Assembly (NCBI GenBank): GCA_034678405.1
Contig: JAXDBW010000042.1
Location: forward strand, 136-64,135
From: Patescibacteria group bacterium
Lineage (GTDB): Bacteria > Patescibacteriota > Patescibacteriia > UBA10025 > JAHIVO01
Direction: 5' to 3'
Length of the DNA: 64,000 nt
Shown: in pieces, positions 2,449-52,525 of the stretch
How the letters are laid out: each line of letters opens with the position of its first letter
How positions within the stretch are numbered: the stretch's first letter is position 1
Translations under genes and position numbers: made by a program
The notes under the pieces: model-generated
The model's input: the letters and a program-made list of their open reading frames with translations, nothing else
What the model was told of the DNA's origin: nothing
Database searches by the model: none

Positions 2449-3255
2449 CTATTTCAACCACTTAATTCTTTTCAGCAGCGGGCCATACAAATCCTCTTGC
2501 CAGTTGATACTAAACCGCTGGCGCTTGTCTCGTGGCTGGTAGGGACGGCTTGTGAACTGCACCGAGGGGATGTCAGTGATAACGGCAATGGGTGTCTGCT
2601 CGGTCCCCTCCCCGGTCGCGAAGACAGCAGCAGTGGCGAGTGCATCGGCGACATTCGTTGTGGAGACTTTAAACTTCCGGCCATATAAATCCCTCGTCTG
2701 ACGATAGTCATTGAGCGGACGGAACCCATAGTACCCGAGGGCAATCCCCAGCACCCCGCGCCGCATGGGCACCGTGTGGCTGTCAGTGATGATGACGCCA
2801 ACATCTTTAACATGATAGGTCTTGCGGATCCACTGCCATAGTTCTTTAGCAGTTACCTGTGGACGTTTCGGCCAGAGGATATAGTACTCGCCAGCATTCG
2901 ACGCATCGATCCCGGCTGACGGGATGAGGATGTTGTGCTTGATTGTCAGCACCGCATACCCTTTCGGCACGGCATGGCGCGGAAGATAACGGTCGGCCTC
3001 TCGTCGTATCAGTTCATCTTTATGCGGGTACCGCTCTTTTGGCACGCACCGACCCTGGTGGATACTGACTACCTTTGAGGCAATTGCCACTACAGAACGC
3101 TCTGGAACACGCTTCACGGCCCTCTGAAAGGCCTCATAGAGGTCATCCTGAGGCGGGTGCAATAAACGTGTTTTGATGGCTCTGACGCGCATAGAATACC
3201 CGAATTGTACCACTTCTCCCCTGTCCACGAAAGCAGCATTGACAGAACTGACCAT
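2449..3255 (-). CDS. CofE-family protein (F420-0:gamma-glutamyl ligase-like)
   Basis: 268 aa. Matches the CofE pattern VAIASKVVSIHQGR...SAGIDASNAGE...VGVIITDSH...RRGVLGIALG...RDLYGRKFKV...ADALATAAVFATGEG. Confidence 0.75.
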   Translation of the reverse strand: MVSSVNAAFVDRGEVVQFGYSMRVRAIKTRLLHPPQDDLYEAFQRAVKRVPERSVVAIASKVVSIHQGRCVPKERYPHKDELIRREADRYLPRHAVPKGYAVLTIKHNILIPSAGIDASNAGEYYILWPKRPQVTAKELWQWIRKTYHVKDVGVIITDSHTVPMRRGVLGIALGYYGFRPLNDYRQTRDLYGRKFKVSTTNVADALATAAVFATGEGTEQTPIAVITDIPSVQFTSRPYQPRDKRQRFSINWQEDLYGPLLKRIKWLK

Positions 3256-3333
3256 TCGTGGTACATTTCGCCGCTATCCTTTGAAAACTACTATTATTAG
3301 TACGGAAAGCGTGCTAAAATACCCCCTATATAA

Positions 3334-3389
3334 CGGGGAGTGGCGCAGTTTCCGCCAAAGGCGGATCGGCCTCTGGCCGAGGCTAGCGC
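3334..3389 (+). pseudogene. Degenerate 5' fragment of tRNA-Pro. It has the acceptor, D-arm and 5' D-loop, interrupted by palindromic hairpin inserts.
   Basis: CGGGGAGTGGCGCAGTT-[TCCGCCAAAGGCGGA]-[TCGGCCTCTGGCCGAG]-GCTAGCGC mirrors the 5' end of the intact tRNA at 3403 (CGGGGTGTGGCGCAGTTGGCTAGCGC). It lacks the anticodon and T arms. Confidence 0.6.
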
Positions 3390-3402
3390 TACACGTGTAT
3401 AT

Positions 3403-3478
3403 CGGGGTGTGGCGCAGTTGGCTAGCGCGCATCGTTCGGGACGATGAGGTCGCCGGTTCAAGTCCGGCCACCCCGACC
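3403..3478 (+). tRNA. tRNA-Pro (anticodon CGG), CCA encoded
   Basis: Hand-folded cloverleaf. Acceptor CGGGGTG/CACCCCG, D-stem GCGC, anticodon stem CATCG/CGATG with loop TTCGGGA, T-stem GCCGG/CCGGC with loop TTCAAGT, discriminator A plus CCA. Confidence 0.85.
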
Positions 3479-3490
3479 AGTCAATGTATT

Positions 3491-3850
3491 ATGTTTTTTG
3501 TTTACATACTCAATAACTCCGAAGATAATGTCTCTTACGTTGGTGCCACTGGGAAACTTCCACAGACTCGTTTAACTGAGCATAATATTGGCAGCAATAC
3601 TTGGACAAGCACTCACGGACCTTTTACACTAATATATTACGAAAGCTATCACTGCAAAAAAGACGCCTTACATCGAGAGCAGTTTCTAAAATCGGGGCAG
3701 GGGCGCAAACTAGTTACTCTGATTATTGACAATTATGCAGTTTCCGCCAAAGGCGGACCCGCCTCTGGCGGGGGCTACCCGCCCGCTCCGAATGCGGAGC
3801 AGTCGGGCGGGGCGCGCATCGTTCGGGACGGCATACGGTTTCATCCATAG
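3491..3850 (+). CDS. GIY-YIG nuclease family protein (small COG2827/YhbQ-like domain with a C-terminal extension)
   Basis: MFFVYILNNSEDNVSYVGATGKLPQTRLTEHN...GPFTLIYYESYHCKKDALHREQFLKSGQGRK matches the GIY-YIG motif order (YIL, YVG, R..EH, E). The reading frame runs on through the downstream hairpin and tRNA-like sequences to the TAG at 3848. Confidence 0.7.
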   Translation: MFFVYILNNSEDNVSYVGATGKLPQTRLTEHNIGSNTWTSTHGPFTLIYYESYHCKKDALHREQFLKSGQGRKLVTLIIDNYAVSAKGGPASGGGYPPAPNAEQSGGARIVRDGIRFHP

Positions 3851-3891
3851 GATGATCCGCCTTTGGCGGACAAGTCCGGCCACCCCGACCA
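3743..3891 (+). repeat. tRNA-Pro-derived 3' segments with inverted palindromic hairpins
   Basis: Hairpin TCCGCCAAAGGCGGA (3743-3757) and its reverse complement TCCGCCTTTGGCGGA (3856-3870). 3812-3830 duplicates the D-stem and anticodon arm GCGCGCATCGTTCGGGACG. 3871-3891 duplicates the last 21 nt of the tRNA (CAAGTCCGGCCACCCCGACCA). Confidence 0.7.
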
Positions 3892-4142
3892 AAGGCCTTG
3901 AGTTTGTCGAAGAACCAGGTGGATACACACAACTCATGGAACACACTCCATGCGTTCTGTTCATTCGTCTGAATGACAAATCACAAAAACGGCAAACCCT
4001 CAAACAGGAGGAGAATCTTCATTTGAACCTTTCACCTCACTATTTACCGCGTAACGCTCCTTAACTGGTTCCCCATTCCCCTAGAGTGAATGGGATCCTT
4101 CTCAGGACGAGAAAATTGAACCAGCAATATAGGAGATACCAC

Positions 4143-4448
4143 ATGTGTTTCGTGACAAGTAACGGACGGGAGATCCACAATCGGGTCAGGGACTTTTTCC
4201 CTCACAAGCAGCCGGGCACACCGTCGAAGCGTCAGCAGGGCCATCTGCTGAAGAAAGAGAAGCCGCTGGAAGTCTTCCAGGACAACAAATCTATCTTCGG
4301 TCATCTCGTTGGCCGCGACCGCGGCAGCGACAAAATGCTATTCCGGCCTGCCGGCGCCGACGACCCGATCCTCATTGATGGCGATCTGCCCGCCACCAAG
4401 ACCACGAACAAACGTATCACCACTGCTGCTGAGGCAGTGGCCGCGTAA
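4143..4448 (+). CDS. Hypothetical small protein
   Basis: A GGAG lies 8 nt upstream of the ATG at 4143, and a rho-independent terminator follows immediately downstream. Confidence 0.4.
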   Translation: MCFVTSNGREIHNRVRDFFPHKQPGTPSKRQQGHLLKKEKPLEVFQDNKSIFGHLVGRDRGSDKMLFRPAGADDPILIDGDLPATKTTNKRITTAAEAVAA

Positions 4449-6966: not shown

Positions 6967-8499
6967 CTACTCCCACTCGACAGTACCGGGCGGTTTTGAG
7001 GTGATGTCATAGAGCACCCGATTGACCGCGTGTACTTCATTGGTGATGCGCGCTGATATCCGCGCGAGCATGGCATCCGAGAAACGAGTCCAGTCCGCCG
7101 TCATGAAATCAACTGTACTCACTGCCCGCATGATGATCGGATAGCCATAGGTACGGCTATCTCCCTGGACACCCACAGACTTGATGGTTGGTAGTACGGC
7201 GAAGTATTGTTGTGGTCTTTTTTTCAGTGGCAACCGATCAACTTCTTCGCGGACGATCGCATCGGCCTGACGGAGGATGTCGAGTTTGCCTTTGGTAATC
7301 TCACCAATAATTCTGACTGCGAGCCCAGGACCGGGAAACGGCTGCCGCTCCACCACGCTGGCGGGCAATCCCAGGACTCGACCGACGCGTCGGACTTCGT
7401 CTTTGTACAATTCTCGAAATGGTTCAATCAATGTGAAGCCAAACTTCTTCGGCAGACCACCGACATTGTGATGGGATTTAATGACGGCGGCAGTCTTGCC
7501 CACGCTCACCCCGGAGGTAATCGCGTCAGTATAGAGTGTGCCCTGGACGAGCCACTCCACATTTTTGCCAAGCTTCTTCGCTTCCCGCTCGAAGATGCGG
7601 ATGAAGAGCTCGCCAATAATTTTTCGTTTCTGCTCAGGGTCTATGACGCCGTTCAGTTTCCGGAGAAATTCCGCCTCGGCTCGGATAACTTTCAGATTGA
7701 CTTTTTGGTACGAGCGAAATGTTTTCTCCACTTGCTGGACTTCTCCCTGCCGAAGAAGTCCGGTATCGACGAAGATACAGGTTAGTTGCTTGCCGACCGC
7801 CTGATGAACCAGGGTAGCCGCAACTGATGAATCAACGCCACCAGACAAAGCGCACACGACTCGATCCATACCTACTTCCTTTCGGATTGAGGTGATTTTT
7901 TGCTGGACAAATTTCTTCATTGACCAGGACTTTTTTGCCTTGGTAGCTTTTACAAAGTTTTCGAGCATCCGCATCCCAGATTTCGTATGGGACACTTCGG
8001 GATGAAACTGTAAACCATAGATGTGCTTCCGAGTATTGGCAATGGCGACGTGCGGACAGTTATCTGACGAGGCGAGACTGACAAACCCCCGCGGTAGTTT
8101 CGCGACATAGTCACCATGGGACATCCAGGTATGCTGGGTTTTCGTCAGTCCGCTAAACAGCGTGCCTGCCCGCTTAATCCGGATATCAGCTGGACCGTAC
8201 TCCCGCTTCGTTCCCCGGGCGACGCGGCCACCCAGCTGATGGGCCATCAGCTGCAGGCCATAGCAAATCCCCAGCACCGGAATGCCGAGATCATACACCT
8301 GTTTGTTTACTGTGAGTGCTGAGGAGCCGGATAAATTGCGGGGGCCGCCGGACAGGACGATACCCTTGGCCTGCTGTAGTTTTGATAATGGGAAAGTATA
8401 GGGCACCAGTTCTGCATAGACCCCAAGCTCGCGGATCCGCCGCACAATCAAGTGTGAGTATTGCGACCCGAAATCAAGAACGTAGATGGTATCCCTCAT
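6967..8499 (-). CDS. guaA: GMP synthase (glutamine-hydrolysing)
   Basis: 510 aa. N-terminal class-I glutamine amidotransferase domain (IYVLDFGSQYSHLIVRRIRELGVYAELVP) followed by the ATP-pyrophosphatase domain (SGGVDSSV). Confidence 0.95.
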   Translation of the reverse strand: MRDTIYVLDFGSQYSHLIVRRIRELGVYAELVPYTFPLSKLQQAKGIVLSGGPRNLSGSSALTVNKQVYDLGIPVLGICYGLQLMAHQLGGRVARGTKREYGPADIRIKRAGTLFSGLTKTQHTWMSHGDYVAKLPRGFVSLASSDNCPHVAIANTRKHIYGLQFHPEVSHTKSGMRMLENFVKATKAKKSWSMKKFVQQKITSIRKEVGMDRVVCALSGGVDSSVAATLVHQAVGKQLTCIFVDTGLLRQGEVQQVEKTFRSYQKVNLKVIRAEAEFLRKLNGVIDPEQKRKIIGELFIRIFEREAKKLGKNVEWLVQGTLYTDAITSGVSVGKTAAVIKSHHNVGGLPKKFGFTLIEPFRELYKDEVRRVGRVLGLPASVVERQPFPGPGLAVRIIGEITKGKLDILRQADAIVREEVDRLPLKKRPQQYFAVLPTIKSVGVQGDSRTYGYPIIMRAVSTVDFMTADWTRFSDAMLARISARITNEVHAVNRVLYDITSKPPGTVEWE

Positions 8500-9495: not shown

Positions 9496-10557
9496 TTAAT
9501 AATTCGGAGCTTTCTTGCTAATAGTTATTGAGTGTGGATGCGACTCTTTCAGGCTGGCATGTGATATCTGGATAAATCGCGCTTGCCGCGGCATATCCGC
9601 AATAGTCATCGCCCCGATATAGCCCATGCCACTCTTCAGCCCGCCCACCATATGCCAGATGACGTCCTCGACCGGGCCTTTGTATGGTGTCACTGCCTCT
9701 ACGCCCTCAGGGACATACTTGGTTTTGCCTTTTTGGAAATAGCGATCACTGGATTTGCCGCCCTTCATCGCGCCCAGACTGCCCATACCGCGATACTGTT
9801 TGTATTTCTTACCGCCGATAGTAATGACTGAGCCGGGGGTTTCGGCGGTACCGGACAGCATGGAGCCGAGCATCACGGACGAAGCACCCGCGGCCAGAGC
9901 TTTCACGATGTCGCCGGAGTATTTGATGCCACCGTCGGCTATCACGGGCACCTTTTTCTGCTTTGCTACTTTTACTACATCCATGATGGCCGTGAGCTGT
10001 GGGACACCAATACCAGCCACGATGCGGGTCGTACAAATAGCGCCAGGGCCGATGCCCACCTTCAGCCCGTCAGCGATCGGCAGCAATGCTTTGGCTGCTT
10101 CGGCCGTACCGATGTTTCCCATCACCAGAGGTGTCCTGATGGCTTTTTTGATTTTTCGTGCGCTGGCCATGATCCGCGTGTGATGGGCGTGCGCGCAGTC
10201 GACGAAGATAACGGTCGCCCCGGCTTTGTCTAGCGCTGTCGCGCGCTCAATATCATGTGGTCCGACTGCCGCGCCGACTTGGACCTTCGCTTTCTTCGCT
10301 TCTCGGACCCACTTCACCTGTTGTTCGATAGTACAGTTGCGATGCAGGACGGCCATGCCCCCGAGTTTCCCGAGCGTGATAGCCATCTTCGCTTCACTCA
10401 CCGTATCCATCGCGGCTGAGAGGATCGGTACGTCCAAAAAAACCGTCTGAGTGAGACGGGTCTTGAGATTAATCCGATCACGATCCACCCCGGATTTACG
10501 TGGCTCCAGGAGCACGTCATCAAAGGTAATGCCTTGTCGGATCGCGGGAGTAGCCAT
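9496..10557 (-). CDS. guaB: IMP dehydrogenase / GMP reductase family protein (no CBS subdomain)
   Basis: 353 aa TIM barrel with catalytic loop [10 protein letters not shown] and [24 protein letters not shown]. It is too short to contain the CBS pair, so IMPDH versus GuaC is not resolved. Confidence 0.8.
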
Positions 10558-14078: not shown

Positions 14079-14140
14079 GGATTGGGGAAGAAATATGGTT
14101 TGTAATGAAGAAAAGATATTCGCCAGGCAGAGCCTGGTCC

Positions 14141-14215
14141 GGCTCCGCCGGAAACCAGGATTACATGATTCAGAGTCATGCGTCCTACCATTAGACGATC
14201 CCGCAGGTCTCAGGG
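14141..14215 (-). pseudogene. Degenerate tRNA-Gln copy
   Basis: The 5' two-thirds is identical to the tRNA at 14008-14078 through the anticodon arm and T-stem. The T-loop is replaced by the hairpin TTCCGGCGGAGCCGGA, and the 3' acceptor (CTCTGCC) cannot pair with the 5' end. Confidence 0.6.
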
Positions 14216-14254
14216 CGAATATATACTATCATAACTGGGTTAGCTTTTGCAGTA

Positions 14255-14300
14255 CATGATTCGGAAGTCTCGAGTCCTACCATTAGAACCTGCCCTGAGC
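14255..14300 (-). pseudogene. Second degenerate tRNA-Gln-like fragment
   Basis: The D-arm TTCTAATGGTAGGAC is conserved, the anticodon region has diverged, and there is no T-arm. Confidence 0.4.
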
Positions 14301-51580: not shown

Positions 51581-52525
51581 TTATTCCCCCGCGGGGACGA
51601 CGTCCCCATTGTGTAATTTCTGACAAACGTTTTGGATACAATCCACGCTATACTCGCTATTCTGCTGTGAATTAGGGCAGTACGGAGTTGAGTACTGAGG
51701 ACAGCTCGGGACAGTATCAGAGCACTGCGTCTGGGTTTCTGCCCGGAGATCCACATATGACTCGGTATTCACCGCCACGAAATTCGGATCGCTGTATTCG
51801 ATACAATTAGGCGGCGTGCAGCAATCGGCGTGATCATAGGCGGCATCGACGAGTGAGCAATCGTCGGCCGTGACACAACTCGTCCCGACAGTCCCATTGG
51901 AAAGGGAGACCGTGCCGGCAGTTGTGGTAATCACCACGCTGTTGGTATTTGCGTCTGTTGTCGCATTAATATTGGCTGATGAATTGGTATTATTGGGTGG
52001 GGTACAGTATCCCGCTCCACATGTCGACCCAGTGGCCGTATTGACGGATTTAATAGTCCGATCAATCTCCTGATCAGTGAGGCTAGTGTCACGAGGAAGA
52101 AACAGAGCGGCGTATACCACCGCCGTAAATGAAAGAAGGGTGATCAAGACCAACACCAGCCACACAGCTGTGTGATGACGATGATGCCGGGCGGGCAGGT
52201 CCACTTGCGGCACCGGTACCTTAGTCATATTAAATTTCTCCGGGACGAGCCGTGACGGGGTAACTGGCGTGGCCTGAGACTTCGGTGTGGCGATGACTGT
52301 TGGTTTCTGAGTGCGGGCGGTCGGCTGCGTAGTCCGCGGAGCCTTCTGCCGTGGAGTGACCTGCGACGCGCTGCGCTTCCGCTTCGGAATGGCTTTCTTT
52401 CTGGTGGTGGTTTTTTTTCCGGCAGAGCCGGATCCAGCTTTGCCGGATTTCTTCTTTGTGGTGGCAGTTGTACTTTTTTTCATTGCTGCTATGCTGTTAC
52501 TCCGCGTTAGTCGGGGCTGCGGCAA
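51581..52525 (-). CDS. Hypothetical membrane protein with a basic S/T/K-rich N-terminus and a Cys-rich ectodomain
   Basis: 314 aa with one TM segment (VWLVLVLITLLSFTAVVYAALF) and 12 Cys in the C-terminal half. Confidence 0.5.
   Translation of the reverse strand: MPQPRLTRSNSIAAMKKSTTATTKKKSGKAGSGSAGKKTTTRKKAIPKRKRSASQVTPRQKAPRTTQPTARTQKPTVIATPKSQATPVTPSRLVPEKFNMTKVPVPQVDLPARHHRHHTAVWLVLVLITLLSFTAVVYAALFLPRDTSLTDQEIDRTIKSVNTATGSTCGAGYCTPPNNTNSSANINATTDANTNSVVITTTAGTVSLSNGTVGTSCVTADDCSLVDAAYDHADCCTPPNCIEYSDPNFVAVNTESYVDLRAETQTQCSDTVPSCPQYSTPYCPNSQQNSEYSVDCIQNVCQKLHNGDVVPAGE

Follow-up and report, generated by a model that had tools for sequence, protein, structure and literature searches.

Single-domain GIY-YIG nucleases of about 94 aa, the Ssn proteins, are encoded by genes flanked by NTS/SRM hairpin repeats; they bind these hairpins only as single-stranded DNA (ssDNA) and cut a few nucleotides upstream of them, and the insertion-sequence-like layout NTS-ssnA-NTS was remarked on by the authors of that study (Chenal et al., 2025; PMC11893778). 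Here we describe a locus of related make-up in a 64,000-nt window of a Patescibacteria genome (contig JAXDBW010000042.1; all locus coordinates count from position 1 of this window). Region 3329-3891 probably holds one copy of a small selfish cassette resident in the tRNA genes of Patescibacteria (Candidate Phyla Radiation, CPR) and of some other phyla. The cassette has three parts: a gene that encodes a GIY-YIG nuclease about 80 aa long, a double hairpin of 30 nt (dh), and an intact tRNA gene that abuts the open reading frame (ORF).

Ssn with its NTS/SRM hairpins is the closest described system, compared here through its published description. In both cases the nuclease is a single-domain GIY-YIG protein of about 80-95 aa, and its gene is flanked by conserved hairpin repeats that are also found elsewhere in the genome, three dh copies flanking the ORF of the window. 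The first hairpin of the dh resembles NTS (TTCC(C)GC … GC(G)GGAA around a loop rich in A), the sequence just 5' of the hairpin includes a conserved motif containing GT, and the catalytic residues mutated in SsnA (Y6, Y17, and E64) have counterparts at near-equal spacing in the window protein (Y5, Y15, and E63). On the other hand, the dh is a fixed 30-nt pair, and the cassette gene is nested in tRNA genes with tRNA duplications, whereas the word “tRNA” is absent from PMC11893778. The cassette also differs in its hosts, which are mainly Patescibacteria, and in its low copy number. The SRM pattern, HGTCWYN(0-2)YYVSBRHN(0-5)WNVSBRGN(0-2)RNCYNB, matches the NTS control but neither the window nor the dh contexts, also when GTY is accepted for GTC.

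A second point of comparison comes from CPR rRNA genes, where GIY-YIG ORFs occur in non-intron insertions at the tops or bases of stem-loops (PMC11270868). Compared by description, these insertions share with the cassette the host group and the placement of GIY-YIG ORFs in stable-RNA genes without an intron ribozyme; in contrast to the cassette, they are reported for rRNA genes only (“tRNA” does not appear in that paper) and their description mentions no hairpin pair and no functional duplicate of the gene. GIY-YIG genes also appear in another study, in its list of genes that Patescibacteria have passed on to other bacteria. Full-text literature searches returned no description of a GIY-YIG/tRNA/hairpin cassette. 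The element, in which a single-domain GIY-YIG nuclease with its hairpins is nested in tRNA genes and accompanied by a replacement tRNA, is widespread in Patescibacteria and, as far as searched, undescribed.

Close homologues of the nuclease recovered by protein search were few and 41-75% identical. The peptide VSAKGGPASGGG, which is the translation of the dh, is C-terminal in P0002 and P0004-P0007, lies upstream of the domain in P0008 and is absent from P0003; thus, the hairpins are conserved at the nucleotide level alongside these divergent proteins. A metagenomic contig whose protein is 53% identical (L001; loci from other assemblies carry L numbers) has the same order of parts around a tRNA-Pro(GGG), namely a 5' fragment with dh, an intact tRNA, the ORF, GCAGTT plus dh, and a near-intact second tRNA copy with a dh in its T-loop. 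Scanning one genome per species for GTT followed by the first hairpin gave at least 120 stretches. Among those listed, most are from Patescibacteria and others from Omnitrophota, Planctomycetota, Ignavibacteria, Bdellovibrionales, and Gammaproteobacteria; a GIY-YIG homologue is encoded in 12 of the at least 120, and an intact tRNA gene (Pro, Val, Gly, Met, Ser, Thr, Ile, or Gln) stands beside the ORF in every one of these 12 loci.

We also examined a metagenome sample chosen by protein similarity only, and so free of the bias of the hairpin search, consisting of the best 80 of 545 relatives among at least 600 candidate stretches. An intact tRNA gene on the same strand lies within 120 nt of the ORF in 57 of these 80 loci (just downstream in 47, just upstream in 13, on both sides in 3), and a dh lies within 400 nt in 67; several of the remaining loci run into contig ends. 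Chance adjacency of tRNA and ORF is expected in less than 1%, an estimate from tRNA gene density rather than a computed control. Overall, cassettes occupy at least 10 tRNA identities in several phyla. They are flanked by remnants of tRNA copies in which the dh is a clean 30-nt insertion, mostly at nt 17/18 (AGTT^GG) or in the T-loop, and they come in two layouts. Layout I reads tRNA, ORF, a few D-arm nucleotides, dh, and the rest of a tRNA; layout II reads tRNA nt 1-17, dh, nt 18 to about 25-37, ORF, and intact tRNA. The window locus is layout I plus an extra left remnant. One cassette with two or three dh copies (L030, 4412-5087) sits in a tRNA gene that also holds a group I intron (RF00028, 89.5 bits).

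Searches with the nuclease (tblastn) found nothing in INPHARED or PLSDB, and a single relative (L206, IMGVR_UViG_3300026551_000083; 41% identity) among the 2.9 million viral contigs of IMG/VR; a phage or plasmid origin was set aside on these results. The protein matches no PADLOC and no PHROGs family, and a defence-system reading was dropped because PADLOC has no family for it.

The dh itself consists of two adjacent 6-bp stems with 3-nt loops, with the consensus TCNGCC-ARA-GGCNGA followed by YCNGCC-TYT-GGCNGR. Because of this consensus of paired stems it is quasi-palindromic and reads nearly alike on both strands, each showing a purine-rich and then a pyrimidine-rich loop. Its length and pairing emerged from a search that used flanks only: any insert splitting a copy of the neighbouring tRNA was accepted between exact flanks of 8 and 7 nt, and hairpin formation was not required. 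Inserts of exactly 30 nt were the commonest (33 of 83), the remainder being for the most part tandem-tRNA artefacts or 61-nt nested double insertions, and all 27 distinct 30-mers pair at 11-12 of 12 positions. In the alignment of these 27, 99.1% of cells are paired and 7 of the 12 pairs show compensatory changes; none of 500 shuffles attained the observed covariation score, and the signal collapses when partners are slid by 1-3 columns. The preliminary description of this locus had considered the insertion of a small hairpin element, and the dh is indeed a precise 30-nt insert.

Insertion points in the flank-only search lie after nt 17 (n = 18) and after nt 12 (n = 9), with single or few cases at other positions. 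A separate search added three cases after nt 28, in the anticodon stem, where AGTT^GG recurs; this anticodon-stem motif carries a dh in some tRNA-Asn genes and in L030. Since the same hexamer is hit there too, the pattern suggests that a short DNA sequence is recognised, and not tRNA as such. Away from tRNA genes, the dh occurs in intergenic DNA, in both orientations, and in frame in protein genes. Such distant copies often lie between 6-7-nt direct repeats that end in GTT, such as GAAAGTT[dh]GAAAGTT or CATCGTT[dh]CATCGTT (L038, L046, L049, L059, L074, L090, and L101), and sometimes inside short heptamer arrays; the 6-7-nt repeats could be target-site duplications or footprints of repeated insertion. 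In-frame copies are translated as …FPPKADQPLAEK… in an rsmH-like coding sequence (CDS; L074), at the apparent end of a ribosomal protein gene (L053), and in a radical-SAM-like CDS (L049), the gene names being read from the sequence. Nested 61-nt insertions, with one dh inside a hairpin of another, occur in L145/L146, L147, L159, L170, and L183.

About half of the exact 18-mer genome matches lack the second hairpin; they include unrelated motifs and were not counted as dh. In six of the loci (L047, L070, L079, L084, L112, and L121) the first hairpin stands, with no second hairpin, in the other context GCGGGCAYG-GTTTCCGCCAAAGGCGGA-AGAGCGAGC, which is probably an unrelated conserved motif or RNA.

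Gain and loss of the cassette can be followed among relatives that keep the order adenylosuccinate lyase, tRNA-Pro(CGG), and F420-ligase-like gene; the window locus lies between these two protein genes, at the tRNA-Pro(CGG) site. Two relatives, L125 and L208 (neighbour protein 64 and 67% identical), have a plain tRNA-Pro only. Remnants without an ORF are found in L123 (72%), where the intact tRNA is accompanied by about 190 nt of hairpin-rich sequence and a 3' tRNA fragment, and in L124 (68%), where it is accompanied by hairpins in a T-loop remnant and a 3' tRNA fragment; the acceptor sequence of the latter remnant matches the L125-type tRNA. In L207, the closest relative (83%), the left remnant is missing, and the contig ends inside the tRNA. 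Elsewhere, the acceptor stems of the flanking remnants in L022 (CGGGGTG…CACCCCG) are unlike that of its internal tRNA-Pro (CAGGGCA…TGCCCTG), and L007 has a duplicate of 33 nt from the downstream flank of the tRNA, with 4 differences. A mobile cassette that entered and decayed repeatedly would leave site states and patterns of this kind. Rather than sharing one arrangement around generic repetitive extragenic palindromic (REP) elements with no sign of insertion, the relatives supply the empty sites that the preliminary description had proposed to look for by alignment, and ORF-less remnants besides.

L124 also carries two Y1-transposase-like ORFs with weak Pfam matches (7127-7519 and 9656-10207), less than 5 kb from its decayed tRNA-Pro remnant. 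When these two Y1_Tnp-like proteins were used as tblastn queries, the window gave no match and, among the other fetched loci, only L138 gave one. A Y1 transposase or RAYT partner in the window was rejected accordingly.

At the window locus, the hairpins, tRNA fragments, and GIY-YIG ORF reported in the preliminary description are all in place, far beyond chance; features are given on the plus strand unless stated otherwise. The left remnant (3329-3350) comprises 5 nt of upstream flank and tRNA-Pro nt 1-17 (CGGGGAGTGGCGCAGTT, 3334-3350, one mismatch), and is a direct repeat 91% identical to 3398-3419. Between tRNA nt 17 and 18 lies dh copy 1 (3351-3380), made up of TCCGCCAAAGGCGGA (3351-3365) and TCGGCCTCTGGCCGA (3366-3380). 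It was retrieved by the flank-only search as a clean 30-nt insertion, both its hairpins are perfect, and the ssDNA fold forms both of them (z -3.5). Nucleotides 18-26 of the tRNA follow (GGCTAGCGC, 3381-3389, compared with 3420-3428), and the tRNA homology stops here. The intact tRNA-Pro(CGG), with its CCA encoded, occupies 3403-3479 (ARAGORN; Rfam RF00005, 65.2 bits against a gathering score of 29), and 11 nt past its end the ATG at 3491 opens the GIY-YIG ORF (3491-3850), whose catalytic domain spans 3491-3736 (Pfam PF01541, E 6e-14; 111 bits with a hidden Markov model of the family).

The ORF tail (3737-3850) is read-through of GCAGTT, a dh, and tRNA remnant (…AVSAKGGPASGGG…). GCAGTT (3737-3742), a direct repeat of tRNA nt 12-17, starts the right-hand, 5'-truncated tRNA copy, and the same junction of ORF, GCAGTT, and hairpin is present in L001, L034, and L007. 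The dh that follows (copy 2, TCCGCCAAAGGCGGA plus CCCGCCTCTGGCGGG, 3743-3772) is again at tRNA nt 17/18, and its 30-mer is found identical in L001, L007, L022, L034, and L193. After GGCTA (3773-3777, tRNA nt 18-22) comes an extra nested hairpin of 34 nt (CCCGCCCG…CGGGCGGG, 3778-3811), placed before the 3' strand of the D-stem. The copy then resumes with 19 nt (3812-3830, 100% identical to 3425-3443) that correspond to tRNA linear nt 23-41, that is, the D-stem 3' strand, the 5' strand and loop of the anticodon stem, and 2 nt of its 3' strand. What follows (GCATACGGTT, 3831-3840, compared with 3444-3458) is a shortened and degenerate remnant of three parts, namely the 3' strand of the anticodon stem, the variable region, and the 5' strand of the T-stem. 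Copy 3 of the dh (TCATCCATAGGATGA plus TCCGCCTTTGGCGGA, 3841-3870, the latter hairpin at 3856-3870) is inserted in opposite orientation in the T-loop, at GGTT^CAAGT in place of the AGTT^GG of the other two copies, and in the minimum-free-energy ssDNA fold it pairs with 3743-3757 (z -5.7). The locus closes with the final 21 nt of the tRNA, copied exactly (3871-3891, 100% identical to 3459-3479) and comprising the 3' part of the T-loop, the T-stem, the acceptor 3' strand, and CCA. The 15-mer TCCGCCAAAGGCGGA has 3 copies in the 64 kb, all at this locus, against 0.14 expected, and none of 100 shuffles reached 3.

Beyond what the preliminary description had listed, the intact tRNA proved to be a regular component of the cassette, the hairpins to be an exact 30-nt pair found also without the ORF and even inside protein-coding genes, and the locus to include the duplicated 5 nt of upstream flank and the 34-nt hairpin at 3778-3811. 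Inserts of the latter type, CCCGCCCG-(hairpin)-CGGGCGGG just past GG(C/T)TA of the D-loop, occur both in the window and in L119 (4189-4235), with a similar one in L027 (around 3510). Given this second kind of insert at the D-loop, the tRNA remnants may be a common insertion target for several kinds of small hairpin. On 3000-4300 the tRNA was the only credible Rfam match, with no group I intron or other family beside it; no intron family appeared at E values up to 10. A second tRNA in the right-hand copy (3737-3891) was discarded as a candidate, since ARAGORN and Rfam both report only 3403-3479.

Only five credible dh copies occur in the window. An ORF-less case on the minus strand (14118-14206; ARAGORN and dh scan) consists of a copy of tRNA-Gln nt 1-54 (14206-14153), a dh variant in the T-loop (14152-14123), and CGAAT; it sits 38 nt upstream of an intact tRNA-Gln(CTG) (14079-14007), with no nuclease gene nearby. 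The variant, with stems TCCGGC/GCCGGA and CCAGGC/GCCTGG, is inserted at GGTT^CGAAT. A third, more decayed tRNA-like fragment lies further upstream, at about 14250-14300. The dh scan also found a dh-like 30-mer (TCCGGCAGAGCCGGA plus TCCAGCTTTGCCGGA, 52418-52447) in frame in the minus-strand CDS 51581-52525, where it encodes SGKAGSGSAG in the Lys-rich N-terminal region of the product.

The nuclease matches PF01541 with an E value of 6.3e-14 (52.5 bits against a cut-off of 22.6). Its core is 80-82 aa long; homologues measure 79-108 aa and end 0-15 aa past the core, within a few residues of it where no hairpin follows. Y5, R27, H31, E51, and E63 are invariant across the aligned homologues. The AlphaFold2 model (pLDDT 93.9) has the topology E-E-H-H-E-H-H, and the three-stranded sheet with flanking helices and Tyr/Tyr/Arg/His/Glu residues places the protein in the GIY-YIG superfamily. 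Fold matches in the PDB are to UPF0213, Slx1, I-TevI, and UvrC, the best being UPF0213 BH0048 (1zg2) and the Slx1 nuclease domain (6seh and 7cq2). Query-normalised TM-scores reach 0.68 for the best matches and are 0.67 for Slx1, 0.48 for I-TevI, and 0.47 for UvrC. Identity to the best structural matches is 23-30%, and a PDB sequence search gave marginal UPF0213 matches only (E about 0.02). Judged from the model, the nuclease is a bare single-domain catalytic core of the Slx1/UPF0213 branch. The C-terminus of 1zg2, from Bacillus halodurans, reads VSLKGGP, and the hairpin-encoded tail of the window protein VSAKGGP; this could be coincidence, or the BH0048 gene could also run into a hairpin.

The Slx1/UPF0213/YhbQ proteins are thus the nearest in fold, with weak sequence matches to UPF0213, and Slx1 cuts branched and stem-loop DNA. 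In contrast to Slx1, the window protein has no RING/PHD domain and no Slx4 partner, and the accessible Slx1/UPF0213 literature describes no genomic link to tRNA or hairpins. In NCBIfam there is only a sub-threshold match, to the group I intron endonuclease family TIGR01453 (17.5 bits against 56.05). An I-TevI-type homing endonuclease was rejected as an identity for the protein, since it is a bare core with no linker or DNA-binding domain, its fold is nearest UPF0213 and Slx1, it scores far under the intron-endonuclease cut-off, and no intron houses it. Of the interpretation in the preliminary description, one part therefore stands, a GIY-YIG-associated mobile element at a tRNA gene, whose architecture recurs in distant genomes and at other tRNA genes; the label “homing-endonuclease” does not fit the nuclease, and no intron ribozyme accompanies it.

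The cassette nevertheless shares habits with several kinds of mobile DNA. Like the GIY-YIG homing endonucleases (I-TevI, T4 Seg), it places a selfish nuclease gene in or next to a conserved gene, has empty and occupied alleles, and includes a duplicated gene part that preserves the function of the target. It differs from them in lacking a DNA-binding domain or intron, in belonging to another branch of the fold, in having the hairpin pair as an integral part, and in a bacterial rather than phage or organelle host. In Allomyces, the endonuclease ORF found at the 3' end of atp6 came with a replacement for that end of the gene; small double-hairpin elements are present in such genomes too, and those of fungal mitochondria offer an analogy to the dh. 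Further analogies to the cassette are REP/RAYT systems, the hairpin-guided single-strand transposition of IS200/IS605, and the palindromic elements of Rickettsia. With these it shares dispersed short structured repeats, including in-frame copies, a nuclease gene flanked by repeats, insertion 3' of a short sequence, and nested insertions. It is set apart from REP/RAYT and IS200/IS605 by an enzyme that is GIY-YIG rather than an HUH/Y1 transposase, by a unit of only 30 nt, and by its strong tie to tRNA. Integrase-borne islands at tRNA genes likewise insert in tRNA genes, duplicate part of them, and leave the tRNA functional; in contrast, the cassette is only about 0.5 kb long and its duplications lie in the 5' part, D-loop, and T-loop rather than in a 3' att core. 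An integrase island was rejected for the window, as no recombinase is among the neighbours, which are adenylosuccinate lyase, the F420-ligase-like gene, and the gene for a 120-aa protein that matches no family.

By analogy with Ssn and NTS, the nuclease might recognise the dh in ssDNA and cut a few nucleotides on its 5' side. Layout I has just 6-9 nt of tRNA-derived sequence ahead of the dh; Ssn cuts at about this distance from its own hairpin, and the spacing is consistent with an upstream nick by the nuclease. Such a break could promote recombination between the partial tRNA copy of the cassette and the resident tRNA gene; because tRNA sequences are conserved between species, the partial copy would act as a portable homology arm across species. 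Layout I would arise from a single crossover or gap repair in the 3' part of the tRNA, and layout II from one in the 5' part; either event would leave one tRNA whole, and the reverse reaction would free the cassette. The ORF, with no obvious promoter of its own, is probably transcribed together with the tRNA. The dh would also spread alone as a 30-nt mini-insertion, presumably mobilised in trans. What we infer here is hairpin-guided ssDNA cutting plus recombination between tRNA copies, and the exact recombination route is considerably less certain than the cassette interpretation as a whole. Taken a step further, and only tentatively, the cassettes may form a hitherto unrecognised class of mobile elements without a recombinase, in which a hairpin-guided, single-domain GIY-YIG nuclease gene uses tRNA genes as landing sites and cross-species homology arms, a working tRNA is always regenerated, and the dh is separately mobile. 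The dh targets of such a class would be AGYT^ in D-loops, GGTT^ in T-loops, the loops of other hairpins, and in-frame sites in protein genes.

Several points weigh against reading the locus as a mobile cassette of this kind. Nuclease activity, ssDNA preference, and hairpin binding are all properties that we infer by analogy, and the dh fails to match the published SRM pattern of Ssn. About 90% of genomic hairpin copies have no GIY-YIG gene within the stretch retrieved, which was never longer than 8 kb and often had the match close to an end, and the mobilisation of ORF-less copies in trans is assumed. Because the intact tRNA keeps an uninterrupted AGTT^GG, a simple model of cutting the empty site does not explain immunity. 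Some 5' homology arms are only 17 nt, short for RecA-dependent recombination, and since loci carry one, two, or three dh copies the ends of the element are not defined. Neither an excised circle nor a fresh insertion was seen.

These points have to be set beside the other ways of explaining the same features. It is unlikely that the gene encodes a free-standing endonuclease of the I-TevI/Seg type that cuts the double-stranded tRNA gene and is copied in by repair (“intronless homing”), the hairpins doing no more than destroying the site. The GIY-YIG domain, the sequence-defined insertion points (AGTT^GG in the D-loop and the same in an anticodon stem), the coexistence of empty and occupied alleles, and the duplication or co-conversion of flanking target sequence would all suit such an enzyme; however, the protein is the core of about 80 aa with neither linker nor DNA-binding domain, its TIGR01453 score and its TM-scores (lower to I-TevI than to Slx1) speak for another type, and the adjacent intact tRNA and other tRNAs retain the putative target. 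A dh that is conserved, covarying, and found far from tRNA genes would also be unexpected for a site-disrupting scar. That solitary copies make up most of the dh would suit a domesticated host system, in which an Ssn-like nuclease and chromosomal hairpins modulate recombination or transformation, the proximity to tRNA serves expression, and the fragments are by-products of recombination or of replication slippage that the hairpins induce. Patescibacteria have small genomes, where retention of a gene suggests a use. In Neisseria, Ssn and NTS limit the integration of transforming DNA (PMC11893778). We nonetheless find this explanation improbable, given the patchy presence of the cassette and its decayed remnants at the orthologous site in close relatives, its occurrence in at least 10 different tRNA genes and several phyla, internal tRNAs that can differ from the flanking remnants, nested insertions, and the scarcity of dh copies in the 64 kb.

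A role at the RNA level, in which a tRNA-like 3' end would serve the stability or processing of the nuclease mRNA, or the segments would be split-tRNA halves, and the hairpins would act as RNA structures, could draw on the covariation, which suits RNA as well as DNA hairpins, and on a right-hand copy that retains the 5' strand and loop of the anticodon arm and a 3' end with CCA. The region is also strongly structured, and the ORF is probably co-transcribed with the tRNA 11 nt upstream. Yet we judge it very unlikely: neither ARAGORN nor Rfam recognises a second tRNA, the right-hand copy has no 5' acceptor strand and a decayed T-arm, dh copies occur in both orientations, between genes and in frame within them, and an intact tRNA always stands beside the remnants, so that nothing needs splicing. 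As for a set of unconnected ordinary features, namely REP or terminator hairpins, attL/attR scars of an integrase island, or an assembly artefact, GC-rich hairpins are common and tRNA genes are classic integration sites with 3' duplications. This is hardly credible, being contradicted by the same architecture in dozens of independent assemblies and by hairpins that are strongly over-represented and site-specific; moreover, no integrase or Y1 transposase lies near the locus, the duplications take in 5' fragments and internal segments, and the whole cassette spans only about 0.5 kb.

The selfish tRNA-gene cassette, which we continue to regard as the probable explanation, also bears on annotation, where it accounts for fragments of tRNA pseudogenes and, in CPR proteins, for odd “SAKGGPASGG” tails at the C-terminus and for short insertions rich in Gly, Ser, and Ala. 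Every pair of nuclease and hairpin is in addition a candidate sequence-specific ssDNA cutter that might serve as a tool. For Ssn-type nucleases beyond Neisseria, the locus may provide a link to mobile hairpin repeats and to insertions in stable-RNA genes of CPR bacteria. If the cassette interpretation is true, a nuclease of about 80 aa with neither a DNA-binding domain nor a recombinase would persist and spread by means of a structured 30-nt DNA signal, and the element would parasitise the most conserved genes of the cell. Should the cassettes indeed form a recombinase-less class, an Ssn-like ssDNA nuclease would be what drives them, and bacteria would have in them a counterpart to homing cassettes and to palindromic elements of the Rickettsia type.

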